A stretch of DNA of 64,000 nt, from positions 128,001 to 192,000 of the forward strand of contig CBDCSU010000004.1 in NCBI GenBank assembly GCA_965221775.1, read 5' to 3'. The translations under genes were made by a program, and so were the position numbers. The first letter of the stretch is position 1. Each line of letters opens with the position of its first letter. This DNA is from Candidatus Latescibacterota bacterium. GTDB taxonomy: Bacteria > Latescibacterota > UBA2968 > UBA8231. Shown piece after piece: positions 16,251 to 52,367 of this stretch. The notes beneath the pieces were generated by a model, which did no database searches, was not told the origin of the DNA, and was given only the letters and a program-made list of their open reading frames with translations.

Positions 16251-16305
16251 CTCTCATGTCGTCTGCTCATCGACATTCACGGGTTTCCTTCCGAGGGAGC
16301 GTCCT

Positions 16306-18852: not shown

Positions 18853-18931
18853 CCGAGAGTGGTTTCCCAGGGAGTGGGAGTTTCTCCAATCCCGTAGAGG
18901 CGGATCGTTCCAGCCAGTGGAGAGGGTATCG

Positions 18932-19129: not shown

Positions 19130-19345
19130 ATGCCGAGGATCCCAGGAGTCGGTCACCTACGGGCAGTACGTGCCCTTGAGAGGGCAGGATTCTATGTAGT
19201 CCGGCAGGGGAAACACACTGTAATGAGCGACGGTACCAGGATCCTGACAATCCCTCGAAGCAACCCCGTCAATGCCTTTACCATGGGCGGTATCGTTCGC
19301 GATGCTGGTCTAACGGTCGAGCAATTCCGCAATCTCTTGAACTAG
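19130..19345 (+). CDS. hicA: HicA-family mRNase toxin
   Basis: RALERAGF..VRQGKH..M......LTIP...I.RDAGLT.E.F. Starts immediately after the hicB stop. Confidence 0.85.
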   Translation: MPRIPGVGHLRAVRALERAGFYVVRQGKHTVMSDGTRILTIPRSNPVNAFTMGGIVRDAGLTVEQFRNLLN

Positions 19346-19360
19346 TGTTGTGTCGCAGAG

Positions 19361-20338: not shown

Positions 20339-20342
20339 CCCC

Positions 20343-22102: not shown

Positions 22103-22112
22103 GTGATGGAAG

Positions 22113-23015: not shown

Positions 23016-23093
23016 CAGCCGTCCTCTGAGCCCTATAGCTCGGTACGGCCAGACTGCGCAGACACGAGATAGCTCTTCTCTGCATTCGGAGCC

Positions 23094-24365
23094 TTGATGA
23101 CACGCCATACCGTTGCCGGCCATCGACCGCGCGAGCACGCCCGCTACGGAGCCGCTTCCCAGCAGGAGGCCGAAGGACCGCTGCCGCAGCCCTTCCCGCG
23201 GCAGATCGGAGCGCGGGCCATGGAGTACCTCCAGGAGGTCGTCGACTCCGGTCTCACCAGCGACATGGGGACCCGTTTCGAGCAGGCCTTCGCCGAGGCC
23301 CACGGCGCCGCCTACTGCATCGCCACGCCGGGATGCACGCCGGCCCTGGCGGTGCTCGCAGCGGCCTTCGACTTCGAGCCGGGCGACGAGATCGTGGTCA
23401 GCTCGGTGAGCGACTACGGCACGGTGCAGGGTCTGATCAGCGCCGGCTACATCCCCGTCTTCGCCGACACCGCGCCCGGCACCGTGATCGTCGACGCGGA
23501 GACCGTGGAGGCCTGCATCTCCGAGCGCACCCGGGCGATCCTGGTCGTGCACCTGACGGGGCTGATCTGCGACATGGACGGCATCAACGAGGTCGCGGCG
23601 GGCCACGGGCTGGTCGTGTACGAGGACGCATGCCAGGCCGTCTTCGGCCGCTACAAGGGCCGCTGGGCCGGGACCCTGGCCGCGGCGGGCGCCTTCTCCT
23701 TCGACTCGGAGAAGACCATGGGTTCCGACGTGGGCGGCTGCATCCTCACCGACGACGACCGGCTGGCCGAGCGCGCCCGCTTCGTCGGCCAGAGCCGCGG
23801 CGGCGAGATGGTGGAGCACTTCGGGCGCGTGCACACGGTGAACGGCTTCGCCCACCGAATGACCCAGTCCACGGCCGCCATCAGCCTCGCCCAACTGGAG
23901 GTCATCTGTCCGCAGGTCGAGCACCGGGACCGTATGATCCGCCTGTTGAGCGCCCTCCTCGACGAGATCCCCGGCGTGTCGGCCCTGCCGATCCCGCCGG
24001 AGACCGAGGTCTACTCCTGCTGGATGGCGGGCTTCACCATCGACCCGGAGCAGTTTCGGTGCTCCACGGAGGAGTTCGGCGACCGCGTGGCGGCGGCCGG
24101 CATCCCGGGGGCGGGACAGGCGCGATACTACCTGCTGCCGGCGGCCTTGCCCTATCTCACCGAGGCGGCCGAGAGACGCAGCTACCCGTACTCGCAGCCG
24201 CCGGCGTCGCGGACCTACCGCTACGACGCGTCCACCTGCCCCAACGCGCAGGCCGTGCTGGAGCGCTTCGTCCGCTGGAGCAGTTTCTGCGAGAAGTACG
24301 AGCCCCGCCACTGCGAGCAGGCGGCGGAGATCGTGCGCCGCGTCGCCGAGGAGTGCAGGAGATGA
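23094..24365 (+). CDS. DegT/DnrJ/EryC1/StrS PLP-dependent aminotransferase
   Basis: VHLTG, EDACQA and FSFDSEKTMG..GG motifs. Confidence 0.9.
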   Translation: MMTRHTVAGHRPREHARYGAASQQEAEGPLPQPFPRQIGARAMEYLQEVVDSGLTSDMGTRFEQAFAEAHGAAYCIATPGCTPALAVLAAAFDFEPGDEIVVSSVSDYGTVQGLISAGYIPVFADTAPGTVIVDAETVEACISERTRAILVVHLTGLICDMDGINEVAAGHGLVVYEDACQAVFGRYKGRWAGTLAAAGAFSFDSEKTMGSDVGGCILTDDDRLAERARFVGQSRGGEMVEHFGRVHTVNGFAHRMTQSTAAISLAQLEVICPQVEHRDRMIRLLSALLDEIPGVSALPIPPETEVYSCWMAGFTIDPEQFRCSTEEFGDRVAAAGIPGAGQARYYLLPAALPYLTEAAERRSYPYSQPPASRTYRYDASTCPNAQAVLERFVRWSSFCEKYEPRHCEQAAEIVRRVAEECRR

Positions 24366-33059: not shown

Positions 33060-35006
33060 ATGCTCCCCGGATCTCGCAAGACCTCGGGAGTGACGCTGCG
33101 CGCGGTCCTCACCGGCGCGGTGCTGATGGCGGCGATCTGCGCGCTCGGCCCCTGGGCGATCCTGATGGTCAAGGGATCGCAGCTCACCAATACCGCCATC
33201 CCCATCATCGCCGTCCTCTTCCTCTTCGGCATGACCGCCGTGGCCGTGCCCGTTCTCGGGGCGCTCCACCGCCGGCTGGCCTTCTCCCGCTCCGAGGTGA
33301 TCACCGTCTACGGGATGATGCTGGTGGGCGCCACCATCGTCACCGGTTTCACCGGCCACTTCCTGTCGGTCATCACCGGGGCGATGTACTACGCCAGCCC
33401 CGAGAACGACTGGAAGGCGATGTTCGTGGAGCACCAGCATCCCTGGGTGTCGCCCACCGACCCCGGGGCCGTGCGCTCCCTCTACGAGGGGCTTGCCGGG
33501 GGCATGGCCGTTCCCTGGTCGGCCTGGGCCCTCACCCTGGCCCTGTGGATGCCCTTCATGGCCGTCCTCTACTGGTGCGTGTTCTGCCTGGCGGTGCTGC
33601 TGCGCGGCCAGTGGATCGAGAACGAGCGGCTCCTCTTTCCGCTCACGAGCCTGCCCCTGGCCATGACCCGGGACCCGGGGAAGTCAGGTGGCCTCTTCAG
33701 CCCTCTCCTTAGAAGCCGGCTCATGTGGCTCGGGTTCGCCCTGCCCTTGCTGCTGCACTCCTGGAACTCCCTCTCCGCCTACCACGACGGCATTCAGGCC
33801 CTGGCCCTGACCGGTTCCTTCAGCCTGCTCCAGGGGGAGGTGGGGGTGCCCTTCCGCCTCAACTTCCCGATCATCGGCGTGGGCTACCTGATGTCGCTGG
33901 GGGTCTCCTTCAGCATCTGGTTCTTCTTCGTCCTGGGCGTGGTGCAGGCCTGGGTCTTCGCGCGCATCGGCCTGGAGATCGGCGGCGGCGACGTGTGGAA
34001 CTCCGGTGGCGCTCCCGCGGCGATCATGCACCAGCAGGCCGGGGCCCTCGTGGTCCTGGTGGGGTTCGTGCTGTGGACGGCGCGGCGGCACCTGGGCGGC
34101 CTGGTGCGCCAGGCCCTGGACAACAAGGGGGGCGGTGAGGAGGTCGTGGCGCCGCGCACCGCGGTCCTCGGCCTGCCGGCGGGCGTGGCCCTCCTGGTGG
34201 CGTGGCTCACCCTGACTGGTCTCAGCCTGTACGTGGCCGTGCTGCTGGTGCTGGGGGCCCTGATCGTCTACATCGGCGTAGCCCGCGTCATCTGCGAGGC
34301 CGGCCTGCCCGGGGTCCAGACGCCGATGGTGCCCCAGGCCTTCATCACCCGCGGTTTCGGACCGTCCGTGCTGGGCCTGCGGAACATGACCGGACTGGGG
34401 CTGAGCACGGTGTGGGTGGGGGCCGGGGGGCTCACCACCATGACGAGCGCCATGCTCCACACCTTCAAGCTGAAGGCCACCGCCGGAGAGCGGCCCGACC
34501 GCCGTCTGCCCTGGATCTTCCTGGCGGCCATCATCGTCGGGATGGCCGGCTCGATCTGGGTCACCATGCGCATTTGCTACGCCCACGGCGGCATCAACAT
34601 GCACGGGTGGTTCTTCGAGGGAGCTCCCAAGTGGCCCCTGACCTACATGGCCTCGGTCTACAACGATCCGGAATCGTCCTTCGCCCCGAGGATGCTGTTC
34701 ACCGGCCTGGGGGGCGGCTTCATGGCCCTGCTGTTCTTCCTGCGCCAGCGCCTGCCCTGGTGGCCCCTTCACCCTATCGGCTTTCCCATCGCCACCACCT
34801 ACCCCATCGTCTCCTACGATTGGTTCGCCCTGTTCATGGCCTGGATCATCAAGGCACTGGTCCTGCGCCACGGCGGGGTGCGGGCCTACCGCTCCCTCGT
34901 GCCCTTCTTCCTGGGCCTGATCCTGGGCGAGTTCTCCACCGCATGCATGTGGGTCTTCATCGACGGGGCCCACGGTGTGGAGGGGAACATGATCTTCAAT
35001 TTCTGA
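33060..35006 (+). CDS. Polytopic membrane protein, DUF6785/DUF6784-like (putative transporter)
   Basis: Many hydrophobic segments. ASPENDW, QWIENERLLFPL..LP, EAGLP, WWPLHPIG, PFFLGLILG. Confidence 0.8.
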   Translation: MLPGSRKTSGVTLRAVLTGAVLMAAICALGPWAILMVKGSQLTNTAIPIIAVLFLFGMTAVAVPVLGALHRRLAFSRSEVITVYGMMLVGATIVTGFTGHFLSVITGAMYYASPENDWKAMFVEHQHPWVSPTDPGAVRSLYEGLAGGMAVPWSAWALTLALWMPFMAVLYWCVFCLAVLLRGQWIENERLLFPLTSLPLAMTRDPGKSGGLFSPLLRSRLMWLGFALPLLLHSWNSLSAYHDGIQALALTGSFSLLQGEVGVPFRLNFPIIGVGYLMSLGVSFSIWFFFVLGVVQAWVFARIGLEIGGGDVWNSGGAPAAIMHQQAGALVVLVGFVLWTARRHLGGLVRQALDNKGGGEEVVAPRTAVLGLPAGVALLVAWLTLTGLSLYVAVLLVLGALIVYIGVARVICEAGLPGVQTPMVPQAFITRGFGPSVLGLRNMTGLGLSTVWVGAGGLTTMTSAMLHTFKLKATAGERPDRRLPWIFLAAIIVGMAGSIWVTMRICYAHGGINMHGWFFEGAPKWPLTYMASVYNDPESSFAPRMLFTGLGGGFMALLFFLRQRLPWWPLHPIGFPIATTYPIVSYDWFALFMAWIIKALVLRHGGVRAYRSLVPFFLGLILGEFSTACMWVFIDGAHGVEGNMIFNF

Positions 35007-38858: not shown

Positions 38859-40805
38859 ATGACGCAGCACTCCGCCGCCGCCGCCGGTCCGGTGCGGGCG
38901 CCGCGCACCCTGATCGCCGGCTCGGCGATGTGCGTCCTCATCGCCGCCTGGGGGCCCTACAACCTGCTCGTCCTGCGCGGGTCCTGCCTGACCATCGACT
39001 TCTCCACGGGGGCGGCGATCGCCGTCCTGTTCTTCGCCGCCTTCTTCCTCAACGGCCTGCTGCGCGCCTTCCTGCCGGTCCTGTCCCTGTCCTCGGGGGA
39101 GCTGTCCATCACCTACCTGATGGCGGCCATCGCCTGCTCGATCTGCACCATGGGGCTGACCCTGCAGCTCGTGCCCCTGGTGCCGGCCATGGATTACCTC
39201 GCCTCGCCGGAGAACGAGTGGGCCCGCGACATCCTGCCCTACGTGCCTCACTGGCTGCGGCTGCAGGGGGAAGACGTGATCCTCGGCTTCTACGAGGGCC
39301 TCTCCGAGGGCGAGTCGATCCCCTGGGGGGCCTGGGCGAAGCCGCTGCTGGCGTGGATGCCCGTGATCGTCGGTCTCTACCTGGTCATGATCTCCCTGGC
39401 CGTGCTCTTCAGCCGCCAGTGGATCGAGCACGAGCGCCTCGCCTACCCCCTGGCCCAGGTGCCCCTGGTCATGACCTCCCAGGAGGAGGGCCGGGCCCTG
39501 AACGCCTTCTTCCGCAACCCGGTCATGTGGCTGGGCTTCTCCGTGCCCTTCACCATCACCGGCATGAACGGCCTCCACTTCTATCACCACTTCGTGCCGA
39601 ATTTCTATCTGAGCACTCACATCAACCTCTTCCACGACATGCCCGCCCTGTGGTTGAACCTGACCTTCTCCATGATGGGCTTCGCCTACCTGGTGCACCA
39701 GGAGGTGGCCCTGAGCGTCTGGCTGTTCTACCTGGTGGGCTACGCCGTCTCCGGCGTGTTCTCCCAGGTCGGCATCACCCGGAGCGTGACGCTCGACTTC
39801 TACGCCCAGCGCGACGGCGGTCCGATCTTCTCCTACGTCCAGTTCGGCGCCCTCATGGCCCTGGTCGGCTATACCCTGTGGACGGCGCGGGGGCATCTGC
39901 GCGGCAGCTGGAGGGCCGCCTGGCGCTCGTCGACCTCCTCGGCCGGGGACGCCATGTCCATGCGCAGCGTCTACGTGCAGCTGATCCTGGGGCTGGTGCT
40001 GATGACGGGATGGTTCACCGCCGCGGGCGTGCCCCTCTGGGCGGGGGCGGCCTTCGTCCTGGTGATGACAGTCACCTTCCTGGGGATCACCCGCATCCTC
40101 TGCGAGGCCGGGCTGGCCCGGACGCGGGCGCAGCTTCCCACGCCCACGGTGCTGCGTTCCATGGTCGGCACCGCCCACCTGGGCCCGGCCGGGACGATCG
40201 GCGTCCTGGGCTACGGGCAGGTCTGGATGAGCGACGTGCGCACCTTCGTCATGGCCGCCGCCGCCAACGGCCTCAAGCTGACGGCCTCGATCCGGGGCAA
40301 GGCCCTGGTCCTGGGGAGCACGGTGCTGGCCGTGGTGCTCGCCCTCGTGGCGTCGATCGGGTCGACCCTCTACTTCGCCTACGAGAGCGGCGCCCACAAC
40401 GCCAACAGCTGGTTCTTCATCCGCGCTCCCCGGTACATCGTCGATTTCGCCGCCGGCTACGTGCGCGAGCCGGCCGCCGTCGACGTGGCGGGCCTGGGGC
40501 TGATGGGGCTGGGCGGCGCCGGCATGCTCGGCCTCTACTGGATCCGCGCCCACTTCCTGGGCTTTCCCATCCACCCCCTGGGGCTGGCCGTCTCGCAGAT
40601 GGCCCTCACCCGGCACATGTGGTTCAGCATGTTCGTCGTGTGGCTGCTGAAGGCGGTGATGATCCGCTACGGCGGCCCCCGCCTGCTGCTGCGGGTGCGG
40701 CCCTTCTTCCTCGGCTTCATCCTCGGGGAGTTCGTGGCCCTCTCCATGTGGCTGATGATCGATCTGGCCACGGGGGCCCAGGGCAACAGCCTCTTCAACG
40801 TCTGA
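38859..40805 (+). CDS. Polytopic membrane protein, DUF6785/DUF6784-like (second paralog)
   Basis: ASPENEW, RQWIEHERLAYPLAQVP, CEAGL, FPIHPLG, PFFLGFILGE. Confidence 0.8.
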   Translation: MTQHSAAAAGPVRAPRTLIAGSAMCVLIAAWGPYNLLVLRGSCLTIDFSTGAAIAVLFFAAFFLNGLLRAFLPVLSLSSGELSITYLMAAIACSICTMGLTLQLVPLVPAMDYLASPENEWARDILPYVPHWLRLQGEDVILGFYEGLSEGESIPWGAWAKPLLAWMPVIVGLYLVMISLAVLFSRQWIEHERLAYPLAQVPLVMTSQEEGRALNAFFRNPVMWLGFSVPFTITGMNGLHFYHHFVPNFYLSTHINLFHDMPALWLNLTFSMMGFAYLVHQEVALSVWLFYLVGYAVSGVFSQVGITRSVTLDFYAQRDGGPIFSYVQFGALMALVGYTLWTARGHLRGSWRAAWRSSTSSAGDAMSMRSVYVQLILGLVLMTGWFTAAGVPLWAGAAFVLVMTVTFLGITRILCEAGLARTRAQLPTPTVLRSMVGTAHLGPAGTIGVLGYGQVWMSDVRTFVMAAAANGLKLTASIRGKALVLGSTVLAVVLALVASIGSTLYFAYESGAHNANSWFFIRAPRYIVDFAAGYVREPAAVDVAGLGLMGLGGAGMLGLYWIRAHFLGFPIHPLGLAVSQMALTRHMWFSMFVVWLLKAVMIRYGGPRLLLRVRPFFLGFILGEFVALSMWLMIDLATGAQGNSLFNV

Positions 40806-40811
40806 CGCCCC

Positions 40812-41558
40812 TCAGCCCTCCTGCTCCTTCTTCCAGGCCTCGTACTCGGGGCGCGCCTCCTCCGACAGGGGGTAGTACTTCCTCAGGTGGCCGCCCTCGA
40901 GCAGCCGCAGGCGGCTGAACTCCTCCCACTCGGCGTGGGAGCCGGCGGCCTCCACCAGCTCGGCAGCCAGCTTCGCCGGCACCGCCACGACCCCGTCGTC
41001 GTCGGCGACGATGATGTCCCCGGGCAGGACCAGGCTGTCGTTGAGGGCGACGGGCACGTTCACCGCGTAGGGGAAGATGCTGGTCTGGGTGTGGAAGTTC
41101 GGCGTCACCCCCCGCAGCCACAGGCCCAGGTCGAGGTCCCGCTGCACGATGGGGTAGTCGCGGATGCAGCCGTCGACGACGACGCCGGCGCCGCCGCGGC
41201 CCTGGAAGAAGGTGAGCATCATGTTGCCGAAGACGCCGCTCTTCATGTCGCCCCGGGCGTCGACGCAGACCACGTCCCCCGGCCGCGCGTGGTAGAGCAC
41301 GTGCCGGTGCAGCTGCGACTCCGGGTCGGCGTACTCGTCCTGGTCGTACACGTCCTCCCGCTGGGGCATGAACTGCAGGGTGAGGGCCGGGCCGACGACG
41401 CTCCGGCCGGGGGTGAAGGGCACGGGCCCGAGGACGTGCGGGTCCTGGATGCCGAGGCGCTTGAGCTCACCGGCGGCGGTGGCCGAGCCGATGTGGCGGA
41501 GCCCGTCGATGATCTCCGCGGGCGGGCGCTCGATGTCGGGGGTGTGGGTGTCGGCCAT
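40812..41558 (-). CDS. RraA-like / HMG aldolase family protein
   Basis: GPALTLQF.P, GVFG.M, VVDGCIRD, PGDIIVADDDGVV. GAGGAG RBS. Confidence 0.85.
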   Translation of the reverse strand: MADTHTPDIERPPAEIIDGLRHIGSATAAGELKRLGIQDPHVLGPVPFTPGRSVVGPALTLQFMPQREDVYDQDEYADPESQLHRHVLYHARPGDVVCVDARGDMKSGVFGNMMLTFFQGRGGAGVVVDGCIRDYPIVQRDLDLGLWLRGVTPNFHTQTSIFPYAVNVPVALNDSLVLPGDIIVADDDGVVAVPAKLAAELVEAAGSHAEWEEFSRLRLLEGGHLRKYYPLSEEARPEYEAWKKEQEG

Positions 41559-41707
41559 CTGGTTCTCCTCGGCGGTTTCGGTTGGACCCTGTCTCGCGGG
41601 CGGGAGAAGGTAAGGCAGAACCCCGGGGGCATGGCGTCCGCACCCGACGGCTGGTTGACGGCCCCGGCGGCATGACGTTAGCTCCCTGACCGCCGAAGGC
41701 ATCCTGC

Positions 41708-43555
41708 ATGACCGAAGCCCTCCTCATCGCCGCCGCCGTCGTCGTCCTCGCCGCCCTCGTCGCTCTGCGCAGCCGGCGGGGGAGCGCCGGCCACCTCGAC
41801 AGCTCCTACGACGAGTCCGAGGGCCAACGCCGCCTGCACAAGTGGGGCTACGCCGACACCCGCTTCGAGTTCGACGGCCCGCGCAGCGTCCGCGTCACCG
41901 GCTCCCGCTACCCGCTGGCCGGGTACAGCCTGCCGTTCTTCGTCCCCTTCGCCGAGGAGGTTCTCGGCGTGCCGATCACCCCCGGGGAGATGATGCCCGA
42001 GGTCGAGCGCGGCCCCCTGCCTCCGGGCCGCCCCTGCGAGGCCTTCCTCGGCGCCTGCCGGCAGCGGCTGGGCGAGGATCGCCTCGCCACCGACGACGAG
42101 ACCCGCCTGACCCACAGCCACGGCCAGCTCAGCGTCGACGAGATCTACCGCCTCCTCTACATCGGCAGCCTGCCGCGCGTCGCCGACCTCGTGGTCTTCC
42201 CCGAGAGCGAGGAGGAGGCGGGGCAACTCGTGAGCCTGGCGGCGGAGCACGGCGTCTGCCTGGTGCCCTACGGGGGCGGCACCAACGTCAGCGGCGCCCT
42301 CTCCCTGCCGCCGGGGGAGGAGCGCCCCATCGCCTCCGTCGACATGAGCCGCATGAACCGCATTCTGTGGCTGGACGAGGACAACCTGCAGGCCTGCGTC
42401 GAGGCCGGGATCACCGGCAAGGAGCTGGAGCGCCTCCTCGGAGAGCGCGGTTACACCACGGGGCACGACCCCGACAGCGTCGAGCTCTCCACCCTCGGCG
42501 GCTGGATCGCCACCAACGCCAGCGGCATGAAGAAGAACCGCTACGGCAACATCGAGGAGATCGTCGTCGAGGCGACCCTGGTGACCCCGGCGGGGGAGGT
42601 CGAGTCCCGGCGGGCGACGCCGCGCAACTCCATCGGGGTGGCGCCGCGCCTGTGGCTCTTCGGCTGCGAGGGCAACCTCGGCCTGATCACCAAGGCGGTG
42701 ATCAAGATCCACCCGCGGCCCGAGGCGCGCGAGTACGGCTCCCTGGTCTTCCCCTCCCTCGACCACGGGGTCCGCTACCTGAAGGCCCTGCGCCGGGAGG
42801 GGGCCCTGCCGGCGAGCATCCGGCTGGTGAACAACACCGAGTTCCGCTTCGGCCAGGCCCTGAAGCCGGCGCCGTCGGCCGTGACCCGCGTCAAGACGGC
42901 GGTGCAGCGTTTCGTCCTCCAACGGGTGAAGGGCTTCGACCTGCGAAAGCTGGCGGCGTGCACCATCGTCATGGAGGGCACCCGCCGCGAGTTGGCCTGG
43001 CAGCGCAGGATCATCTTCTCCCTGGCCAGGAGGTTCGGCGGCGTCAGCGGCGGCTCCCACAACGGCCGCCGTGGCTACATGCTCACCTTCGCCATCGCCT
43101 ACATCCGCGACTTCCTCAACCAGTTCCACATCATGGGCGAGACCTTCGAGACCTCGGTGCCCTGGGACCGCATCCACGACGTGACCGGCGCCGTCGAGGA
43201 GAAGCTCGCCGAGCAGTGCCGCGGCCACGGCGTGCGCGGGACTCCCTACCTGTCCTACCGCATCACCCAGACCTACCACACCGGGGTGTGCATCTACTTC
43301 ACCATGGGCTTCAGCGGCAAGGGCCTGGAGGCGCCCGACCGCGTCTACCACGACGTGGAGGCGAGCCTGCGGCAGGCGATCCTCGACCACGGCGGGTCCC
43401 TGTCCCACCACCACGGTGTCGGCAAGATCCGCGCCGCCTTCCTTCCGGAGGTCCAGACCGAGGCCAGCCTGAGGATCCTGCGCGAGACCAAGCGGGCCAT
43501 GGATCCGGACGACGTCTTCGGCATCGCCAACGGCGCCCTCGCCGCCGACCGCTGA
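41708..43555 (+). CDS. agpS: Alkyl-dihydroxyacetonephosphate synthase (FAD-linked), with N-terminal TM anchor
   Basis: PYGGGT.VS, MNRILWLDEDNL.A.VEAGITG.ELE, GHDPDS.E.STLGGW..T.ASGMKKN.YGNIE, ETFETSVPWD, RITQTYHTG.CIYF, SLSHHHGVGKIR. Confidence 0.9.
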   Translation: MTEALLIAAAVVVLAALVALRSRRGSAGHLDSSYDESEGQRRLHKWGYADTRFEFDGPRSVRVTGSRYPLAGYSLPFFVPFAEEVLGVPITPGEMMPEVERGPLPPGRPCEAFLGACRQRLGEDRLATDDETRLTHSHGQLSVDEIYRLLYIGSLPRVADLVVFPESEEEAGQLVSLAAEHGVCLVPYGGGTNVSGALSLPPGEERPIASVDMSRMNRILWLDEDNLQACVEAGITGKELERLLGERGYTTGHDPDSVELSTLGGWIATNASGMKKNRYGNIEEIVVEATLVTPAGEVESRRATPRNSIGVAPRLWLFGCEGNLGLITKAVIKIHPRPEAREYGSLVFPSLDHGVRYLKALRREGALPASIRLVNNTEFRFGQALKPAPSAVTRVKTAVQRFVLQRVKGFDLRKLAACTIVMEGTRRELAWQRRIIFSLARRFGGVSGGSHNGRRGYMLTFAIAYIRDFLNQFHIMGETFETSVPWDRIHDVTGAVEEKLAEQCRGHGVRGTPYLSYRITQTYHTGVCIYFTMGFSGKGLEAPDRVYHDVEASLRQAILDHGGSLSHHHGVGKIRAAFLPEVQTEASLRILRETKRAMDPDDVFGIANGALAADR

Positions 43556-43563
43556 GCCGCCCG

Positions 43564-44418
43564 GTGCCCCGGGAACCCTCGGTCGTCATCACCGGCGCCT
43601 CTTCCGGTCTGGGAGCGGCCCTGGCCGCGGCCTTCGCCCGGGACGGCGCCCGCCTGACCCTGATGGCCCGGCGGGCGGAGAGGCTGGCGCAGGTCGCCGA
43701 GGCCTGCGGCGCCGCCGAGGTGGAGACGGTGAAGGGGGACGTCACCGTCGCCGCCGACGGGGAGCGGCTCGTGGAGGCGGCGGTCGCCGCCCACGGCGGC
43801 ATCGACTGCCTCGTCGCCAACGCCGGAGTGAGCATGTGGGCGCCCTTCGAGGAGGTGCGCGACCTGTCCCTGTTCCGCCGGCTCATGGAGGTCAACTACC
43901 TCGGCGCCGTGCACTGCGTCCACCCGGCGCTGCCCCATCTGAAGGAGAGCCGCGGGCAGTTCGTGGCGATCTCGTCGATCCAGGGCCGCGTCGGGGTGCC
44001 GCAGCACACCGGGTACTCGGCCTCCAAGCACGCCCTGCAGGGGTTCTGCGACGCCCTGCGCATGGAGTTGGAGGGCAGCGGCGTCAACGTCCTCACCGTG
44101 GTCCTCCACTGGCTCGGCGGCACGGAGCTGCGGGGGCAGGCCCTGGCCGCCGACGGCCGGCCCTTCGGCGAGGGCCGCCGCCGGCCGAGCCGGGACGCCA
44201 TCGGCCTCGAGGAGACCTGCGGCGCCGTCCTGCGGTCGGTGAAGGAGCGCCGCCGCGAGCTGGTGATGCCCTGGAAGCTGAAGGCCCTCCTCGCCATCCG
44301 CGCCCTGCGGCCGCGGCTGTCGGAGGCGATCGTGCGCCGGGCCGTGGACCGCCAGGGGGGCGAGGCCGTGGGCGGGGCTGCGGACACCGGCACCGAAGAC
44401 GGGAGGCAGCGACCGTGA
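43564..44418 (+). CDS. SDR of the DHRS7/DHRS7B-like group
   Basis: ITGASSGLG, NAGVS, MEVNYLG, AISSIQG, YSASKHALQGF.DALRME. GTG start 8 nt after the agpS stop. Confidence 0.85.
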   Translation: MPREPSVVITGASSGLGAALAAAFARDGARLTLMARRAERLAQVAEACGAAEVETVKGDVTVAADGERLVEAAVAAHGGIDCLVANAGVSMWAPFEEVRDLSLFRRLMEVNYLGAVHCVHPALPHLKESRGQFVAISSIQGRVGVPQHTGYSASKHALQGFCDALRMELEGSGVNVLTVVLHWLGGTELRGQALAADGRPFGEGRRRPSRDAIGLEETCGAVLRSVKERRRELVMPWKLKALLAIRALRPRLSEAIVRRAVDRQGGEAVGGAADTGTEDGRQRP

Positions 44419-44692
44419 ACCCCGGATCTGCCATCGGCCTCCCTCCACCGGACCGGGAAGGACCTCGCGCTGTGCTCGCCGACCGCCCGGGGTTCACCGA
44501 AGCCTGGATCGGCACCGCCATGGTGATCGCCCACCGCTGGAACCGCGAGGCCCTCCGGAGGGCCCCCCTCGAGCGCCTCGCCCTCGACATCGCACCGAGG
44601 CTGCCCTGAGCCGGCGATTGCCCGCATCCGCAATCGTTGGCAAGTTTTCCACGCTTTCCCTTCCGCCTCTACCCCGTCGAACTGGATTCGCC

Positions 44693-47575
44693 ATGACGCG
44701 CCGGCCCTTGCCCGCCCTGGTCCTCCCCCTTCTCGCCGTCGCCGGTCTGACCCTCGCCGGCTGCGCCGCCCGGCCTCCCGCCTCCGGAACCGCCCCCGAG
44801 GCGGCCTCCGACGGCCCGGACACGGTGCTGCCTGTCGATCCCAAGGTCACCCTCGGCACCCTCGACAACGGCCTGCGCTACATCATCCGGCCGAATGCCA
44901 AGCCCGAGAACCGGGCCGAGCTGCGCCTCGCCCTCGACGTGGGCTCGATCCTGGAGACCGACGAGGAGCAGGGGCTGGCCCACTTCGCCGAGCACATGGC
45001 CTTCAACGGCACCACCCACTTCGAGAAGCAGGAGCTGTGGTCCTACCTCGAGTCGGTGGGGCTGCGCACCGGGGCCGACCTCAACGCCCACACCAGCTTC
45101 GACGAGACCGTGTACAAGCTCACCGTGCCCCTCGACTCGGTGCAGGTCGTGGAGCAGGCTTTCCAGATCTTCGAGGACTGGGCCCACGGCATCACCTTCG
45201 ACGGCGAGGAGATCGAAAAGGAGCGGGGCGTCGTCATCGAGGAGTGGCGCCGCGGCCAGGGCGCCGGTCTGCGCATGCTCTACAAGCAGCTCCCCGTGCT
45301 CTTCGCCGACTCCAGGTACGCCGACCGCATTCCCATCGGCCAGAAGGCCGTCCTCGACACCTTCCACCACGACACGCTGCGCGGGTTCTACCGCCGCTGG
45401 TACCGGCCGGACCTGATGGGCTTCGTCGCCGTGGGCGACTTCGAGCCCGCCTGGATGGAGAGCCTGATCACCGAGTACATGGGGCGGGTCCCGGCCGCCG
45501 GGGAGCCGACGGTGCGGCCCGAGGCGCCGGTGCCCGATCACGAGGAAACCCTCTTCGCCATCGTCACCGATCCGGAGGCCACCTCCAACGTCGTCCGGGT
45601 CATGCACAAGGAGGACCCGAGCGACGACTCGACCCGGGGCGCCTACCGGCAGCGCCTGATGGAGAGCCTCTACCACGGCATGCTCAACCGGCGCCTCTAC
45701 GAGCTGACCACCCGGGCCGAGCCGCCCTTCCTCGGGGCGTTCTCCGGCGGCTACTACTCGGTGCGCACCAAGGAGATGATCCAGCTCGCCGCGGGCGTCG
45801 AGAACAACGGCTTCGACAGCGGCCTGGAGGCCCTGCTCACCGAGGCCGAGCGCGTCCGCCAGCACGGGTTCACGGCCACGGAGCTGGCGCGCCAGAAGAA
45901 GGAGCAGCTGCGCGCCATGGAGCAGTCCTGGCGCGAGCGCGACAAGCTGCAGTCGCGGGGCTTCGCCGCCGAGTACATCCGCCACCTGCTGGAGGACGAG
46001 CCGATCCCCGGCATCGAGGGCGAGTACCAGCTCCACCAGGAGCTGCTGCCCACCATCAGCCTCGAGGAGGTGAACGAGCTGGCGGGGGAGTGGACCGGCG
46101 GCGGCAACCGCGTCATCACCGTCACCGCCCCCGACAGGGAGGGGGTCGGCGTGCCCACCGAGGAGGAGCTGCTCGCCACTCTGGAGATGGTCGCCGCCCG
46201 GCCGGTGGAGGCCTACGTCGACCAAGGGGCCGACCTGCCGCTGCTGCCCGACGAGCCCACGCCGGGGTCGGTGGCCTCCCGCGCCGAGATCCCGGAGCTC
46301 GGGGTCACGCGCTGGGAGCTGTCCAACGGCGTGCGCGTCTTCCTCAAGTCGACGGACTTCAAGAACGACCAGATCCTGTTCGCGGCGTACAGCCCCGGCG
46401 GCCACTCCCTGGTGGAGGACGGGGAGTTCGTCGCCGCCTCCACCGCCGCCACCGTGGTCACCGAGGGCGGCCTCGGGAACTTCGACAAGGTGGGCCTCAT
46501 CAAGTGGCTCAGCGGCAAGGTGGTGAGCGTCTCGCCGTACGTCTCGGAGCTGGAGGAGGGGCTGTCGGGCTCGGCCTCGCCCCAGGACGCGGAGACGATG
46601 TTCCAGATGATCCACGCCTACTTCACCGCCACGCGCTCGGACAGCGCCGCTTTCGCCTCCCTCCACACCCGCCTGCGGGCGTGGCTGGAGAACCGCAGCG
46701 CCGACCCCGAGACCGCCTTCGCCGACACGGTCTCGGTGACCATGTCCCAGTACCACCACCGGGCCCGGCCCTGGTCGCTGGCCATGCTCGACGAGCTCGA
46801 CCTGGAGGCCTCGGTGCGGATCTTCCGCGACCGCTTCGCCGACGCCTCGGACTTCACCTTCATCTTCGTCGGCAACTTCACCGCCGAGGCGCTGGAACCC
46901 CTGGTCAACCGCTACCTGGCCAGCCTGCCGGCCCCGGAGCGCGGAGAGAGCTGGCGCGACATGGACATGGACCCGCCCGCCGGGGTGGTGCGGAAGGTCG
47001 TCCGCGCCGGCCTGGAGCCGAAGAGCCAGACCCGCATCCTCTTCACCGGCCCCTTCGACTTCGACGTGCGCGCCGACCGGGTCCAGCTGAGCCTGATGGC
47101 CCAGGCCTTCCAGATCAAGCTGCGAGAGGTTCTGCGCGAGGACCTGGGGGGCACCTACAGCGTCGGCGTGCGCGCCTCCCTCTCCCACTGGCCCGAGGAG
47201 CGCTACCAGCTCCGGGTGAGCTTCGGCAGCGACCCGGAGCGGGCCGAGGAGCTGACCGCCGTCGTCTTCGATCAGATCGACAGTCTGCGCTCCTCCGGCC
47301 TCGACTCGACGTACGTGGAGAGGGTCCGGGAGATCCGCCGCCGCGAGCACGAGGTCGCCCTGAAGGAGAACAACTGGTGGCTCGGCAGCCTGCGCTACGC
47401 CGACACCCACGGCATCGACCCGCTGCTGATCCTCGACCGGTCCCTGGTGGAGGGGCTGACCGCGGCCGACGTGCACCGCCTGGCGCAGCGCTTCGACACC
47501 GGCAACTACGCCCAGTTCGTGATGATGCCGGCACAGGTGGACAGCACCGCCGCCGAGGCGGCGCCCGGGCCGTGA
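44693..47575 (+). CDS. M16 zinc metallopeptidase (PqqL-like) lipoprotein
   Basis: LAGC lipobox, GLAHFAEHMAFNG (HxxEH), NAHTSFDET, LSNG second half, LREDLGGTYSV. Confidence 0.92.
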   Translation: MTRRPLPALVLPLLAVAGLTLAGCAARPPASGTAPEAASDGPDTVLPVDPKVTLGTLDNGLRYIIRPNAKPENRAELRLALDVGSILETDEEQGLAHFAEHMAFNGTTHFEKQELWSYLESVGLRTGADLNAHTSFDETVYKLTVPLDSVQVVEQAFQIFEDWAHGITFDGEEIEKERGVVIEEWRRGQGAGLRMLYKQLPVLFADSRYADRIPIGQKAVLDTFHHDTLRGFYRRWYRPDLMGFVAVGDFEPAWMESLITEYMGRVPAAGEPTVRPEAPVPDHEETLFAIVTDPEATSNVVRVMHKEDPSDDSTRGAYRQRLMESLYHGMLNRRLYELTTRAEPPFLGAFSGGYYSVRTKEMIQLAAGVENNGFDSGLEALLTEAERVRQHGFTATELARQKKEQLRAMEQSWRERDKLQSRGFAAEYIRHLLEDEPIPGIEGEYQLHQELLPTISLEEVNELAGEWTGGGNRVITVTAPDREGVGVPTEEELLATLEMVAARPVEAYVDQGADLPLLPDEPTPGSVASRAEIPELGVTRWELSNGVRVFLKSTDFKNDQILFAAYSPGGHSLVEDGEFVAASTAATVVTEGGLGNFDKVGLIKWLSGKVVSVSPYVSELEEGLSGSASPQDAETMFQMIHAYFTATRSDSAAFASLHTRLRAWLENRSADPETAFADTVSVTMSQYHHRARPWSLAMLDELDLEASVRIFRDRFADASDFTFIFVGNFTAEALEPLVNRYLASLPAPERGESWRDMDMDPPAGVVRKVVRAGLEPKSQTRILFTGPFDFDVRADRVQLSLMAQAFQIKLREVLREDLGGTYSVGVRASLSHWPEERYQLRVSFGSDPERAEELTAVVFDQIDSLRSSGLDSTYVERVREIRRREHEVALKENNWWLGSLRYADTHGIDPLLILDRSLVEGLTAADVHRLAQRFDTGNYAQFVMMPAQVDSTAAEAAPGP

Positions 47576-48708: not shown

Positions 48709-49704
48709 ATGGAACGGGCCACCAACTTCGCACTCGCCCTGGCCGCCATCGTTCTCGCCGCCGGCGACCCGGTGACGGGACAGACCCGGGAGCAGGGCCC
48801 CTGGTGGCCCCACCCGCTCTGGGGGCCCGAGGACGAGGCCGGCGGCTCGAACTGGATCACCCCCGAGGTCGTCCTGCGCGCCGCGCGGCTGGTGGAGACG
48901 GGCAAGGTCTACGAACTGGGCCAGGTCTACGAGCTGGGCATGCCCCTCTTCGGGCAGCGCACCTACGCCTTGAGCATCCCCGGCTCGCCCACGGGCGGAC
49001 CTTTCGGGGAGAACAACCAGCTCGTCTACTTCGACGACTTCCTGTGCGGCGAGATCGGCCAGATCGGCACCCAGTTCGACGGCCCCGGCCACATCGGCAC
49101 GCGCATGACCATGGGCGACGGCTCCACGGCCGACGTGTTCTACAACGGTTTCACCCGGCGGGAGATAGAGGGCTCCTACGGGCTGAGGAAGCTGGGCATC
49201 GAGAACGTCAAGCCTTTCTTCACCCGGGGCGTGCTCATCGACATCGCCGGCCTCAAGGGGGTCGACGCCCTCGACCACAGCTACGAGGTCACCGTGGCCG
49301 ACGTGCGCGGCGCCCTCGAGCGCCAGGGGATGTCGGAAGGGGAGTTGCAGCCGGGCGACGCCCTGCTCTTCCGCTACGGCTGGTCGAAGTACTGGAAGGA
49401 GCCGGGGAAGTACAACACCAACCCGCCCGGCATCGGCATGGAGGTGGCGGCCTGGCTCGTCGAGCGCCAGCCGTCGATGATCGGCTCCGACCAGTGGACT
49501 ACCGAGGTGGTGCCGAACCCGGACCCGGAGCTGCAGTTCCCCGTGCACCAGGAGCTGATCACCAAGGCCGGCATCTGGAACCTGGAGAACATGGTCTACG
49601 ACGGTCTCGTGGAGGACGAGGTCCACGAGTTCCTCTTCGTCTTCGCGCCGATCCCCTTCAAGGGCGGGACGGGGTCCCCCGGCCGGCCGATCGCCATCCG
49701 ATGA
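48709..49704 (+). CDS. Secreted cyclase (kynurenine formamidase-like) family protein
   Basis: WG..DE.G..N, GTQFDGPGH, RGVLID, GSD, H..L....GI..LEN, GGTGSP.RP.A. Confidence 0.85.
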   Translation: MERATNFALALAAIVLAAGDPVTGQTREQGPWWPHPLWGPEDEAGGSNWITPEVVLRAARLVETGKVYELGQVYELGMPLFGQRTYALSIPGSPTGGPFGENNQLVYFDDFLCGEIGQIGTQFDGPGHIGTRMTMGDGSTADVFYNGFTRREIEGSYGLRKLGIENVKPFFTRGVLIDIAGLKGVDALDHSYEVTVADVRGALERQGMSEGELQPGDALLFRYGWSKYWKEPGKYNTNPPGIGMEVAAWLVERQPSMIGSDQWTTEVVPNPDPELQFPVHQELITKAGIWNLENMVYDGLVEDEVHEFLFVFAPIPFKGGTGSPGRPIAIR

Positions 49705-52367
49705 CGGTCCCCACCCCCGCCTCCTTGCGCAGGCTCTGCCGCGGCGCCCTGCCCGAGATCCTCGGCGCCAGCGACGGCAAGGGCATGATGAAGATGGTGG
49801 AGGAGGTCGTCCGCCACGACCGCTGGAACTCCTTCGACCGCTTCCACGACACCACGCGGGTCCTCGTCGAGATGTACGAGAAGGCGGGGGCCGGCGCCGA
49901 GGTGACCCCGGTGCAGACCGGCGGCCGCATCGGCACCGGGCGCTGGATCATCCAGGAGGCCCAGGACGTCAGTTCCGCCACCCTCGACGTGGTGCGGCCT
50001 TTCCGCGAGCGCGTCGCCGACTACCGCGACAACCCCTGGCACGCGGTGCAGTGGACGGCGGCTACGCCGAAAGGCGGGCTGCGCTGCGAGCTGGTGGTAG
50101 TCGATGATGAGGAAACCCTCGACCGCATGGGGCCCGATGGGCTCGAGGGGCGGGCGGTGCTCACGCGCCTCGACATCCGCAGCCGCATGGAGCGGTTCGC
50201 CCAGAAGGGGGCGGCGGCGGTGATCATGGAGAAGGAGGTGGCCAACAACCCCGGCGCCGTGGCCTGGATCAAGTTCGGCTGGGGCGCCGTGCCCATGAAC
50301 CACGCCACGGCGAAGCTGGTGGGGCTGGTGGTATCGCGCCATCAGGGGGACCGCCTCCGGGGGCAGCTTCGGCAGCATGGGCGCCTCGTCGTGCAGGTCC
50401 GCGTCGACGCCCGGCGCTACGTGGGCACCCACGACGTCGTCTGCGGGCTGGTCCCCGGCCGCGACGACCCGCAGGACGAGGTCTGGGCCATCGCTCACTC
50501 CGCCGAGCCGGGGGCCGTGGACAATGCCTCGGGCTGCGCCGTCACCGTCGAGATCGCCCGGGTTCTGGAGGGGCTCATCGCCTCCGGGGCGCTGCCGCGG
50601 CCGAGGCGGACGATCCGCCTGATCAACGGCTACGAGTGCTACGGCTTCTTCGCCTACCTGGAGAGGGTGAAGCGGCTGCAGCCGCCCCTGGCCGGGGTCT
50701 GCATCGACACCCTCGGCTCGCGGCCGGGGATCTGCGACGGCCGCCTCGAGTGGCGGTCGACGGTGCCGGGCTCGGCCGGCTTCGTCGACTGGATCGGGGC
50801 GAAGATCCTGCGCTCCACCCTGCGCCAGTACCGGGCCGCCGGTTACCACCTCGCCCTCGGTCCCTTCATGGCCACCAGCGACACCCTCATCGGCGATCCC
50901 CAGTACGGCTACCCCTGCCCCTGGATCACCAACCACCACAAGCGCGACGGCAGCTCCTGGGACGCCTACCACACCTCGGCGGACCAGCTCGAGCTGCTGA
51001 GCCCGGCCGGGCTCAAGACCTGCGCCGCCGCCATGGCCGCCTACCTCTACTACCTGGCCGACGCCGCCACGCCGGAAGTCGTGGAGATCGCCCGCTCCGA
51101 GACCGACCGCCTCACCGGGGAGGTGCGCGCCCACCGCCGCCGCCTCGACGGCGACGGCGCCGAGTTCCTGCGCCGCGCCCACGAGACCAGCCTGACGCGC
51201 CTGCAGCGCTGGCTCTGGGGCGGCGACCGCCGCGAGGTGATGGCCGAGCTGGGCGGGATGAGCCGCGAGATGGGGCAGGCCGCCGCCAGCGTCCGCCGCG
51301 GACCGGCGATCCGCTCCACCGCGTCCCTGCGCCGTATCCCGCGGCGCAAGGCCCTGCTGACCCCGACCACCGAGAACCTGCCGGCACCGGTGGCCCGCGA
51401 GATCTCCGGCGCCCGCCAGAGCCCCTGGGCGCTGTACTGGGCCGACGGCCGCCGCACCCTCGCCGAGATCACCGCCGCCCTGGCCTGGGAGCGGGGGGGC
51501 CTGCTGGCGCCCGGGGCCACCCCGAGGCGCGGCGAGGTCAGGGCCGAGGATGTGGTCCGGTTCTTCGAGGCCCACGCCGAGATCGACTACGTCGACCTGC
51601 CGGAGCGCGATGAGATGGTCGACAAGGCGAGGATCGTCGCCGACCTGCGCCGTCTCGGCGTCGAGCGCGGCATGGACCTCATGGTCCACAGCTCGCTGTC
51701 GGAGATCGGGCATGTCGAGGGCGGCGCCGACACGGTCGTCTCGGCCCTGCTGGAGGCGGTGGGATCATCGGGGACGCTGCTCATGCCCTCCTTCAACCAC
51801 CGCGCCGCCCAGGTCTACAACAAGATGGCGACGCCGACCACCAACGGCGCCATCCCCGATGCCTTCTGGCGCCGCCCCGCGGCGGTGCGCAGCGAGCATC
51901 CCACGCATGCCGTGGCGGCCCTCGGCCCCCGCGCCGAGCGCTACTGCGCCTCCCACCTGGAGGCGGGGATCTGGGAGCCGGAGAGCCCCATCGGCCAGCT
52001 CGTCCACGGCGGCGGCTGGATCCTCGCCCTCGGCACCACCCACTGGACCTCCACGGCCTACCACGTGGCCGAGATGTCCGTGCCCTGCGGCTGCATCGAC
52101 CCCTTCGGCAACACCGACCGCGTCGTCGGCGGCGACGGCCGCGTCGAGGAGGTCTGGGGGCTGGCCTTCCGCAAGGGGGCGTGCCCGGTGGAGATCTCCC
52201 CGAAGCTGGACGACGCCCTCGACCGCCGCGGCCTGCAGCGGCGCGGCAAGGTGGGGCAGGCGGAGTGCGAGCTGGTACGGGCCGAGGATCTGTGGCGGGT
52301 GCGCCGCGAGCACCTGCGGCCGGTCTGCCCCACCTGCCCCATCGCCCCGAGCTACCGGGACGGCTGA
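49701..52367 (+). CDS. Fusion of M28/DUF4910-like peptidase and AAC(3)-family N-acetyltransferase
   Basis: AHSAEPGAVDNASG, YE..G, SD, YHTSAD, then L..LGV..G..LMVHSSLS.IG.V.GG, GTLLMPSF, RSEHPTHAVAA.G, YHVAE, all in one frame. Confidence 0.85.
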   Translation: MTVPTPASLRRLCRGALPEILGASDGKGMMKMVEEVVRHDRWNSFDRFHDTTRVLVEMYEKAGAGAEVTPVQTGGRIGTGRWIIQEAQDVSSATLDVVRPFRERVADYRDNPWHAVQWTAATPKGGLRCELVVVDDEETLDRMGPDGLEGRAVLTRLDIRSRMERFAQKGAAAVIMEKEVANNPGAVAWIKFGWGAVPMNHATAKLVGLVVSRHQGDRLRGQLRQHGRLVVQVRVDARRYVGTHDVVCGLVPGRDDPQDEVWAIAHSAEPGAVDNASGCAVTVEIARVLEGLIASGALPRPRRTIRLINGYECYGFFAYLERVKRLQPPLAGVCIDTLGSRPGICDGRLEWRSTVPGSAGFVDWIGAKILRSTLRQYRAAGYHLALGPFMATSDTLIGDPQYGYPCPWITNHHKRDGSSWDAYHTSADQLELLSPAGLKTCAAAMAAYLYYLADAATPEVVEIARSETDRLTGEVRAHRRRLDGDGAEFLRRAHETSLTRLQRWLWGGDRREVMAELGGMSREMGQAAASVRRGPAIRSTASLRRIPRRKALLTPTTENLPAPVAREISGARQSPWALYWADGRRTLAEITAALAWERGGLLAPGATPRRGEVRAEDVVRFFEAHAEIDYVDLPERDEMVDKARIVADLRRLGVERGMDLMVHSSLSEIGHVEGGADTVVSALLEAVGSSGTLLMPSFNHRAAQVYNKMATPTTNGAIPDAFWRRPAAVRSEHPTHAVAALGPRAERYCASHLEAGIWEPESPIGQLVHGGGWILALGTTHWTSTAYHVAEMSVPCGCIDPFGNTDRVVGGDGRVEEVWGLAFRKGACPVEISPKLDDALDRRGLQRRGKVGQAECELVRAEDLWRVRREHLRPVCPTCPIAPSYRDG

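Follow-up and report, generated by a model that had tools for sequence, protein, structure and literature searches.

In the mammalian pathway of ether-lipid synthesis, a reductase of the SDR type is described as acting after AGPS (PMC7517302; PMC13200781; PMC9131029). The corresponding operon of Myxococcus xanthus comprises AGPS, a FAR-AT fusion, and a NAD-dependent reductase-like gene (10.1101/2025.10.10.681575; PMC9131029), and MXAN_1676 is reported to be experimentally implicated in ether-lipid synthesis (10.1101/2025.10.10.681575). The occurrence of AGPS in Latescibacterota is already published; ElbD and Agps homologs are described as co-occurring there (10.64898/2026.06.23.733905; PMC11868695).

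Here, we analyze an AGPS gene directly followed by the gene of a classical SDR (Table 1) in a 64-kb stretch of a Latescibacterota genome, the whole of which is called the window below. The locus is not an operon of the M. xanthus type: it has neither an adjacent FAR–acyltransferase fusion nor an epimerase-family reductase. We know of no bacterial alkyl-DHAP reductase identified to date, and an SDR that tracks AGPS over two deep bacterial clades would be the first good, directly testable candidate. No mention of the SDR partner, or of the acyltransferase-fold protein X treated below, was found in the literature searched.

Table 1. Positions of the AGPS/SDR locus in the window and of the putative partner genes elsewhere in the same genome.
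Feature	Position	Strand	Remarks
Divergent intergenic region, RraA-like gene / AGPS	41562..41707	.	presumed promoter region
AGPS (alkyl-DHAP synthase, alkylglycerone-phosphate synthase)	41708..43555	+	615 aa, FAD_binding_4 and FAD-oxidase_C
N-terminal hydrophobic helix of AGPS, residues 4–20	41717..41767	+	followed by RSRR; read from the translation
Spacer, AGPS stop to SDR start	43556..43563	+	8 nt
Classical SDR, candidate alkyl(acyl)-DHAP reductase	43564..44418	+	284 aa, GTG start
ElbD-like protein with FAR domain	G000:C4:1035407-1039597		1397 aa; NAD_binding_4, Sterile, and AMP-binding domains
Orphan acyltransferase-fold protein X	G000:C6:650180-652123		window genome

The AGPS Gene and Its Product

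The AGPS reading frame, backed by GC3-based gene calling, starts with ATG and ends with TGA at 43553–43555. The protein has the VAO-type architecture (Pfam PF01565, 129.2 bits, and PF02913, 121.9 bits). Its residues 42–608 match guinea-pig AGPS (4bby) with E 3e-153 and 514.7 bits; 2uuu scores 311.1 bits, the next match, D-lactate dehydrogenase, 83.2 bits, and other VAO-family enzymes about 83 bits or less. All stretches in which the first-pass annotation had recognized mammalian AGPS are present in the translation, with identical or near-identical counterparts in 4bby. Its term "animal-type" holds for the close similarity to the mammalian enzyme, but not for the tree, where the protein groups with a Poribacteria-labelled protein in a clade of bacterial sequences that is separate from the eukaryotic one. 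A plasmid search with AGPS (tblastn) yields four actinobacterial matches at about 32% identity.

In Dictyostelium ADPS, R352, R447, and Y508 are reported to be important (PMC3509576). These align to R372, R467, and Y530 of the window AGPS, and it is precisely at the Y530 and R372 columns that chains 4bca and 4bc7 deviate from wild-type 4bby. The three residues and H567–569 (the HHH loop, which we take to be part of the catalytic set) are invariant among the 19 homologs of alignment A1. It is very unlikely that the protein forms no ether bonds in this lineage and is instead a VAO-family oxidase or dehydrogenase with another substrate. There is indeed a more distant "AGPS-like" clade (31–35% identical) of no assigned function, but the window protein matches solved AGPS over the full length with all catalysis-linked residues kept, its gene clusters with FAR and an acyltransferase-fold gene (see below), and in other lineages AGPS occurs in fusions with FAR and AT domains. 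By orthology and the kept catalytic residues, the flavoprotein is very probably a true alkyl-DHAP synthase.

The N-terminal transmembrane helix proposed earlier is visible as the hydrophobic run listed in Table 1 and is probably a membrane anchor. Homologs share no conserved sequence over their first 30 residues, but the consensus has RR at about residue 21.

The SDR Gene and the Surroundings of the Pair

As initially annotated, the SDR gene begins 8 nt past the AGPS stop, with GTG at 43564; the frame is supported by homologs and domain matches. The protein matches Pfam PF00106 at 161.1 bits and passes NCBIfam NF004825 (PRK06181) with 278.6 bits at a cut-off of 215. Its closest solved relatives are the NADPH-dependent clavaldehyde dehydrogenase 2jah (E 3.7e-30) and then 11beta-HSD1. 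The motifs from which the first-pass annotation had proposed a DHRS7B-like reductase, a label that is tentative here, are found in the translation; an Atlas look-up returns generic SDR clusters only, none bearing the DHRS7B name, and the JGI label of the homologs is just "short-subunit dehydrogenase".

The motif TGASSGLG occupies residues 10–17, and N111, Y151, and K155 are present. In an alignment of 40 sequences, conservation reaches at least 95% at T10, G11, G15, G17, N111, Y151, and K155, and falls below this value at the catalytic Ser position. Family-specific conserved residues are S90, M91, W92, H148, H156, W183, T187, and R190. Arg35-Arg36 come after the second strand and presumably hint at NADP(H); by analogy, NADPH is the assumed cofactor.

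The pair is flanked by an RraA-like gene and an M16 peptidase gene. The former probably starts at Met48 (40812–41561, minus strand), since its NCBIfam match begins at residue 57. A consensus scan of 41300–44800 for sigma-70 promoters and terminators gives no match. The AGPS/SDR junction is bridged by RNA-library contigs X2 (0 mismatches), X3 (3), and X1 (14); contigs over the spacer weakly suggest co-transcription, as they cannot prove a single transcript and may stem from DNA carry-over; gaps in the contig cover are uninformative.

Linkage of the SDR to AGPS

The synteny survey suggested in the first-pass annotation was performed on 80 loci from related genomes (AGPS identity 60–96%, SDR ortholog identity 49–93%). 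The SDR ortholog lies downstream of AGPS, on the same strand, in 74 of them, and in 59 within 190 nt. Among the six loci without it, three have at most 1056 nt of downstream sequence; the other three, with sufficient room, belong to genomes with one SDR ortholog each elsewhere. In about 10 loci, small unrelated ORFs are inserted between the two genes. These ORFs, the three genomes with unlinked genes, and the promiscuity of SDRs as gene neighbors would agree with an SDR whose substrate is some other lipid or an unrelated carbonyl compound (e.g., a 3-oxoacyl or a head-group intermediate) and which is merely co-regulated with AGPS.

The phylogenetic profile speaks against this. Among 168 genomes of the phylum, 125 are AGPS-positive and 119 SDR-positive; the SDR profile is strictly nested in that of AGPS (119/119), and no genome (0 of 168) has the SDR without AGPS. 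The six AGPS-positive genomes that lack the SDR ortholog are three fragmentary assemblies, two genomes with a divergent AGPS only, and G034.

We also surveyed 80 metagenome loci seeded from one Neomarinimicrobiota-labelled AGPS, 57 of them evaluable. An SDR of the window type directly follows AGPS in 24 of the 57; in 23 cases it is the best own-genome match of the window SDR (150–313 bits; runner-up, 66–99 bits), and in the remaining one (L135) the match falls at the same place. Most of these loci (18/24) belong to a clade that is not Latescibacterota-like, and in 17 loci of this clade a PF01553-like acyltransferase lies just 5' of AGPS. This second clade, represented by a protein with the Neomarinimicrobiota label, has the order acyltransferase–AGPS–SDR; FAR is not seen there within the flanks fetched. 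Ten further evaluable loci carry a different SDR directly after AGPS, 23 of the 57 have no adjacent SDR, and six metagenome loci show the myxobacterial order AGPS, FAR, AT. Among 18 long AGPS-containing proteins, fusions of the types FAR-AT-AGPS, AT-AGPS, and AGPS-like-GlpD are found, and none with an SDR.

Since the adjacency persists down to 41% AGPS identity in the second clade, and ten further loci have another kind of SDR in that place, a mere co-regulated neighbor with another substrate is unlikely. The AGPS–SDR pairing is not due to chance; synteny, profile, and the second clade functionally link the SDR to AGPS. Together with the four-gene cluster of sister families (below), synteny and profile also support and extend the initial proposal that one operon may encode two successive reactions of ether-lipid synthesis by the DHAP route.

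FAR and the Acyltransferase-Fold Protein X

GNPAT-type and FAR-type genes are absent near the pair (Pfam, 14 neighboring ORFs, 33–58 kb of the window), in agreement with the first-pass annotation. In 28 of the 80 genome loci, the gene order is FAR, X, AGPS, SDR, which is the arrangement of sister families; a cluster of the G052 type spans L102:4674-11291. In the window genome, only AGPS and SDR are still adjacent, and FAR and X are found at other places. The genome search for FAR and GNPAT/PlsB proposed earlier is successful for FAR, located in the ElbD-like protein about 870 kb away from AGPS and the sole match of the FAR domain in this genome; on the acyltransferase side, X is the candidate. 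In other families of the class, the FAR part occurs alone, as a 545-aa gene.

The FAR of the 28 clusters bears a C-terminal "Sterile" domain. This combination marks alcohol-forming reductases, hence a separate aldehyde reductase would be redundant. This bears on the SDR, which could act as a fatty-aldehyde reductase feeding fatty alcohol to AGPS, not as an alkyl-DHAP reductase: an aldehyde substrate is conceivable because clavaldehyde dehydrogenase, its best solved relative, reduces an aldehyde, and the second-clade loci show no FAR in the fetched flanks. However, besides the presence of FAR in the clusters, the keto group of alkyl-DHAP would still need a reductase, for which the cluster offers no other candidate; we regard the aldehyde substrate as improbable. 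Judged by its linkage to AGPS and by the logic of the pathway, the SDR is most likely an alkyl(acyl)-DHAP reductase.

Protein X is an orphan of about 650 aa without sequence matches in Pfam, NCBIfam, or PDB; seven X proteins show no match to PF01553 at E ≤0.01. Comparison of X with an AT-AGPS fusion by hhalign gives a probability of 7%, with the block III/IV motifs nevertheless aligned. The predicted structure (pLDDT 86.6) has PlsC 5kym as the top Foldseek match (E 3.9e-4, probability 1.00, target-normalized TM 0.63), followed by PatA, GPATs, LpxM, and GPAT1. An HX4D-like motif is present, with H449 and H455 invariant and D454 conserved to at least 90%. The model suggests that X has the PlsC/GPAT fold and is a candidate for a new acyltransferase family, flagged by the four-gene cluster.

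Other sources of acyltransferase activity were also considered. Searches of the own genome with the AT domains of AGPS fusions P0248, P0267, P0289, P0349, and P0274 give no match. The C-terminal region of the ElbD-like protein has neither a PF01553 match nor an HX4D motif, and shows no relation to the X profile. A 437-aa PF01553 acyltransferase was rejected as the DHAPAT of the pathway because of its patchy distribution (24/75 in family f1, none in f3 and f4). A search for CarF/PEDS1 (PF10520) gives no match, the positive controls being equally silent.

Proposed Pathway and Its Implications

As a conserved module, AGPS and the SDR probably carry out the second and third steps of the DHAP route to 1-O-alkyl-glycerolipids. 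The FAR domain of the ElbD-like protein would provide the fatty alcohol, and X would most likely supply acyl-DHAP. AGPS, anchored by its N-terminal helix, would swap the acyl chain of 1-acyl-DHAP for the fatty alcohol on FAD, yielding 1-O-alkyl-DHAP; we infer this exchange chemistry from orthology and the conserved catalytic residues. The SDR would then reduce the C2 keto group to give 1-O-alkyl-sn-glycerol-3-phosphate, open to acylation at sn-2. With only four genes, FAR, X, AGPS, and the SDR would be a compact set with which to reconstitute the synthesis of alkylglycerolipids.

Unexpectedly, GpsA and PlsY are found nowhere in this class of Latescibacterota, and PlsX in just one genome. A speculative and rather doubtful explanation is that the class discarded GpsA and PlsX/PlsY (or PlsB) and makes its lipid backbones from DHAP via X, FAR, AGPS, and the SDR. 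If so, a peroxisome-like acyl/alkyl-DHAP route would be the main, perhaps sole, route to membrane lipids, with ether lipids at the core, and class-wide loss would matter for understanding the life of these bacteria. The idea that the SDR serves the GpsA-less class at large as its acyl-DHAP reductase is weakened by eight members without AGPS and SDR, and by G008, which has FAR and X only.

The module is relevant to the question of where alkylglycerols in sponges and the sea come from; as a point against the proposed pathway, a sponge preprint reports that short-chain plasmalogens were not detected (10.64898/2026.06.23.733905). The module also bears on the debate over whether eukaryotes owe their ether-lipid pathway to bacteria, in which AGPS is described as phylogenetically uninformative (10.1101/2025.10.10.681575).

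Comparison with Known Systems

The mammalian peroxisomal pathway (FAR1, GNPAT, AGPS, DHRS7B/PexRAP, DHRS7) comprises the same four activities as implied here, and its AGPS is a clear ortholog of the window enzyme. The differences are that the bacterial genes are clustered; that candidate X is not recognizable as a PF01553/GNPAT member; and that the window AGPS has an N-terminal membrane helix. Mammalian AGPS carries a peroxisomal targeting signal.

With the NF004825 (PRK06181) family, the SDR has in common the classical-SDR glycine motif and the Asn, Tyr, and Lys residues. That family has no assigned substrate; the AGPS-linked subgroup has conserved residues of its own.

The M. xanthus operon likewise combines a bacterial AGPS with FAR, acyltransferase, and reductase-like functions, and the multidomain ElbD of M. 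xanthus (FAR, acyl-CoA synthetase, ACP, AT) has an ElbD-like counterpart in the window genome. However, the M. xanthus partner of AGPS is an extended-SDR epimerase-family protein, while the Latescibacterota partner is a classical SDR (PF00106, NF004825); and FAR and AT are fused in M. xanthus, while in Latescibacterota FAR and the putative acyltransferase, a member of an orphan family, are separate.

Identity of AGPS and its place in the family tree

Judged from its sequence, the identity of the 615-aa protein as an alkyl-DHAP synthase (AGPS) is secure. Among all solved structures, guinea-pig peroxisomal AGPS (4bby) matches best (E 3e-153, 514.7 bits, residues 42–608), followed by Dictyostelium AGPS (311.1 bits); the next family matched, D-lactate dehydrogenase, reaches only 83.2 bits. 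Y530, R372, and R467 align with Dictyostelium Tyr508, the catalytic base, and with R352 and R447, both named as important in the relevant passages of a review (PMC3509576). In the structure alignments, residue number equals chain index plus 3; chains of 4bca and 4bc7 deviate from 4bby precisely at the Y530 and R372 columns. These three residues and H567–569 are invariant across 19 homologues. The N-terminus shows hydrophobic residues 4–20, then RSRR. The pairing with a downstream classical SDR, noted in the first-pass annotation as a candidate eukaryote-style ether-lipid module (AGPS plus a DHRS7B/PexRAP-like SDR), is real; the SDR GTG start lies 8 nt past the AGPS stop.

Coordinates of the features discussed (window positions unless a contig or locus is named; G000, the studied genome; C4 and C6, its contigs; L, fetched loci)
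Feature	Position	Strand	Description
AGPS	41708–43555	+	615 aa; FAD_binding_4 and FAD-oxidase_C domains
SDR	GTG start 43564	+	284 aa; classical SDR
RraA-like gene	40812–41561	-	aldolase family; NF006093, 269 bits; divergent from AGPS
DUF6785/DUF6784 protein, first	33060–35006	+	648 aa; followed by solute-binding protein
DUF6785/DUF6784 protein, second	38859–40805	+	648 aa; paralogue of the first
887-aa frame	49704–52367	+	M28-peptidase/DUF4910-like and aminoglycoside 3-N-acetyltransferase (PF02522); predicted start
ElbD-like protein	G000:C4:1035407–1039597 (L017:8405–12598)	-	1397 aa; FAR, Sterile, AMP-binding domains
X in G000	C6:650180–652123 (L099:6178–8127)	-	42–46% identical to clustered copies
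X, further copy	L102:6434–8374		orphan 650-aa family

The family tree (FastTree, 88 rows) comprises the window AGPS, four Latescibacterota proteins, and 83 of 150 listed 50%-identity representatives, hand-picked for near-full-length matches. The window AGPS groups, at 100% local support, with one unnamed metagenomic protein and a protein labelled Poribacteria (59% identity); the nearest other rows include a gammaproteobacterial acyltransferase (AT)–AGPS fusion and a Neomarinimicrobiota-labelled protein. The clade that includes Pharyngomonas, Lagenidium, and Chromera stands apart, hence the earlier label "animal-type" holds for similarity (4bby), but not for tree position.

Fusions are seen in other lineages: giants joining fatty acyl-CoA reductase (FAR), AT, and AGPS (one from a diatom), AT–AGPS, and AGPS-like–GlpD. 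Very long ACBP, FAR, acyltransferase, and AGPS fusions include the homologues P0260, P0266, P0274, P0277, P0299, P0318, and others, one being from the diatom Thalassiosira profunda; P0248 and P0378 are listed with the AT–AGPS (gammaproteobacterial MAG) and AGPS-like–GlpD fusions. In P0051 (1060 aa, one 5.8-kb contig), an AGPS sharing 65% identity with that of the window is listed together with the aminotransferase domains PF00155, PF01212, and PF01053; either a fusion or an error of gene calling could account for this.

Conservation of the pair and probable role of the SDR

A scan with one genome per species yielded 318 stretches encoding an AGPS relative, the best 80 of which were retained; all 80 are titled Latescibacterota or Gemmatimonadota-type MAGs (60–96% identity). 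The synteny survey proposed in the first-pass annotation shows the SDR kept downstream of AGPS on the same strand in 74/80 loci (tblastn, 49–93% identity), at a distance of at most 190 nt in 59 of the 74 and of 0.26–1.8 kb in the remaining 15, the larger gaps being filled by small ORFs with no evident lipid link. Among the six loci with no SDR, three have at most 1056 nt of downstream sequence, and for the other three one SDR ortholog is found elsewhere in each genome (E 1e-76 to 1e-91).

Of the phylum's 168 species genomes, 125 carry AGPS (E ≤1e-60): 71/75 in family f1, 1/3 in f2, 22/22 in f3, 29/31 in f4, 1/5 in f14, and the studied genome. The SDR ortholog (E ≤1e-50) is present in 119 (f1, 67/75; f3, 22/22; f4, 29/31; the studied genome; all other families, 0), and all 119 also carry AGPS. 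Since kin genomes are not independent, these counts stem from a few gains and losses rather than from 119 separate events. AGPS occurs without the SDR in six genomes, G093, G117, and G120 being fragmentary assemblies, G152 and G038 having a sole AGPS of 45–47% identity, and the sixth being G034.

The SDR scores 278.6 bits against NCBIfam NF004825/PRK06181 (cut-off 215); among solved structures, clavaldehyde dehydrogenase is closest (E 3.7e-30), with 11beta-HSD1 next (~1e-24). The best-supported reading is that it is probably the alkyl(acyl)-DHAP reductase, on the basis of linkage and pathway logic rather than of DHRS7B orthology or activity. It cannot be a universal reductase of this kind, as eight class members carry neither AGPS nor SDR, and all that G008 has of the pathway is an overlapping FAR–X pair (X, an orphan acyltransferase-fold protein).

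The window genes around the pair have no lipid connection: upstream, beyond the RraA-like gene, lie the DUF6785/DUF6784 proteins, and downstream of the SDR a M16 peptidase, a BNR protein, and a cyclase. The RraA-like gene is divergent from AGPS in 14/80 related loci and lies 2–3 kb downstream of AGPS in two more. The G+C content of the window (G000:C4:128001–192000) is ~71%; the stretch 12001–24000 has 0.61–0.66 vs. 0.70–0.76 elsewhere, and may be an acquired island.

FAR and protein X

FAR, which the first-pass annotation had suggested seeking genome-wide, is found: the best one is the N-terminal part of the ElbD-like protein (NAD_binding_4, Sterile, AMP-binding). Downstream of its gene are an Lgt-like gene and an OYE-type flavin oxidoreductase, and divergent from it a YegS/DAG-kinase-like gene and MlaD. 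At 28 of the 80 loci from genomes, FAR is a stand-alone 545-aa protein and lies with the 650-aa X upstream of AGPS and SDR, all on one strand; in the complete genome G052, FAR, X, AGPS, and SDR are spaced by 125, 53, and 68 nt, and opposite-strand genes flank the cluster.

By sequence, protein X matches nothing in Pfam, NCBIfam, or the PDB. A word-limited protein search gave 167 homologues (E ≤1e-5); among the 120 listed, all NCBI names are "hypothetical protein" from Latescibacteria/Latescibacterota or Gemmatimonadetes/Gemmatimonadota MAGs, and one JGI name is "1-acyl-sn-glycerol-3-phosphate acyltransferase". The structure model from 33 sequences (pLDDT 86.6, pTM 0.89) consists of a helical N-terminal half of ~400 residues and a C-terminal half with a PlsC/GPAT fold and an HX4D-like motif (H449 and H455 invariant, D454 at least 90% conserved). 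Its best fold match is T. maritima PlsC 5kym (E 3.9e-4, probability 1.00, target-normalised TM 0.63), followed by PatA, plant and algal GPATs, LpxM, and human GPAT1. The hhalign match to an AT–AGPS fusion is weak (probability 7%), with block III/IV motifs paired.

Absence of GpsA, PlsX, and PlsY

Unexpectedly, the studied genome (5.36 Mb, six contigs, estimated completeness 96.8%) gives no match for PlsY, PlsX, the GpsA C-domain, PlsB, or GlpD, and no GlpK above cut-off. Positive controls were detected in 6–11 of 14 named genomes for each family except PlsB, which was detected in 2/14. By tblastn, GpsA and PlsY from a genome of the same phylum give best E-values of 0.6–0.7.

In f1–f4 (131 genomes, many of single contigs), GpsA and PlsY are found in 0/131 each and PlsX in 1/131; all three are present in most other families, and gpsA adjoins plsY in sister classes. 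X occurs in f1 (73/75), f2 (3/3), f3 (22/22), f4 (31/31), f8 (1/1), and f14 (1/5), and nowhere else in the phylum search, being restricted within it to the GpsA-less lineages and G034. FAR/ElbD-like proteins are distributed likewise, but with f1 72/75 and f13 1/1. The distribution of X and FAR/ElbD-like is complementary to that of GpsA/PlsY/PlsX, which fits a DHAP-based backbone route.

Comparison with other bacterial clades and published systems

A metagenome scan seeded with an alignment headed by the Neomarinimicrobiota-labelled AGPS P0250 gave 80 loci, 57 evaluable and 23 not (less than 700 nt downstream, no match). Immediately 3' of AGPS, 24/57 have a window-type SDR (at least 150 bits) and 10/57 a different SDR (70–150 bits); no SDR adjoins AGPS in 23/57, one of which has the window-type SDR 1.8 kb downstream. 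For 23 of the 24, the best match in the studied genome is the window SDR (150–313 bits vs. 66–99 for the second-best); the 24th, L135, matches the same place, its alignment beginning upstream. At 18 of the 24, AGPS is merely 41–54% identical to the window's, and at 17 loci of this clade a PF01553-like acyltransferase, resembling the N-terminus of an AT–AGPS fusion, lies immediately upstream, giving the order AT, AGPS, SDR.

A different SDR subfamily directly follows AGPS in metagenome loci of other bacterial clades (L139, L143, L149, L151, L152, L165, L182, L123, L126). Its best matches in the studied genome are other SDR genes (100–113 bits), and it may have taken over this step without being orthologous.

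Literature searches gave nothing on a bacterial alkyl-DHAP reductase of such kind, on X, or on GpsA/PlsX/PlsY loss in the phylum. "DHRS7B" is absent from the main text of a sponge preprint (10.64898/2026.06.23.733905) and of a myxobacterial-origin preprint (10.1101/2025.10.10.681575), and the passages on Agps in PMC11868695 name no reductase partner. Agps and ElbD homologues of Latescibacterota have been published before, in PMC11868695 and in the sponge preprint, the former placing Agps in 67/92 Latescibacterota and 49/134 Marinisomatota MAGs.
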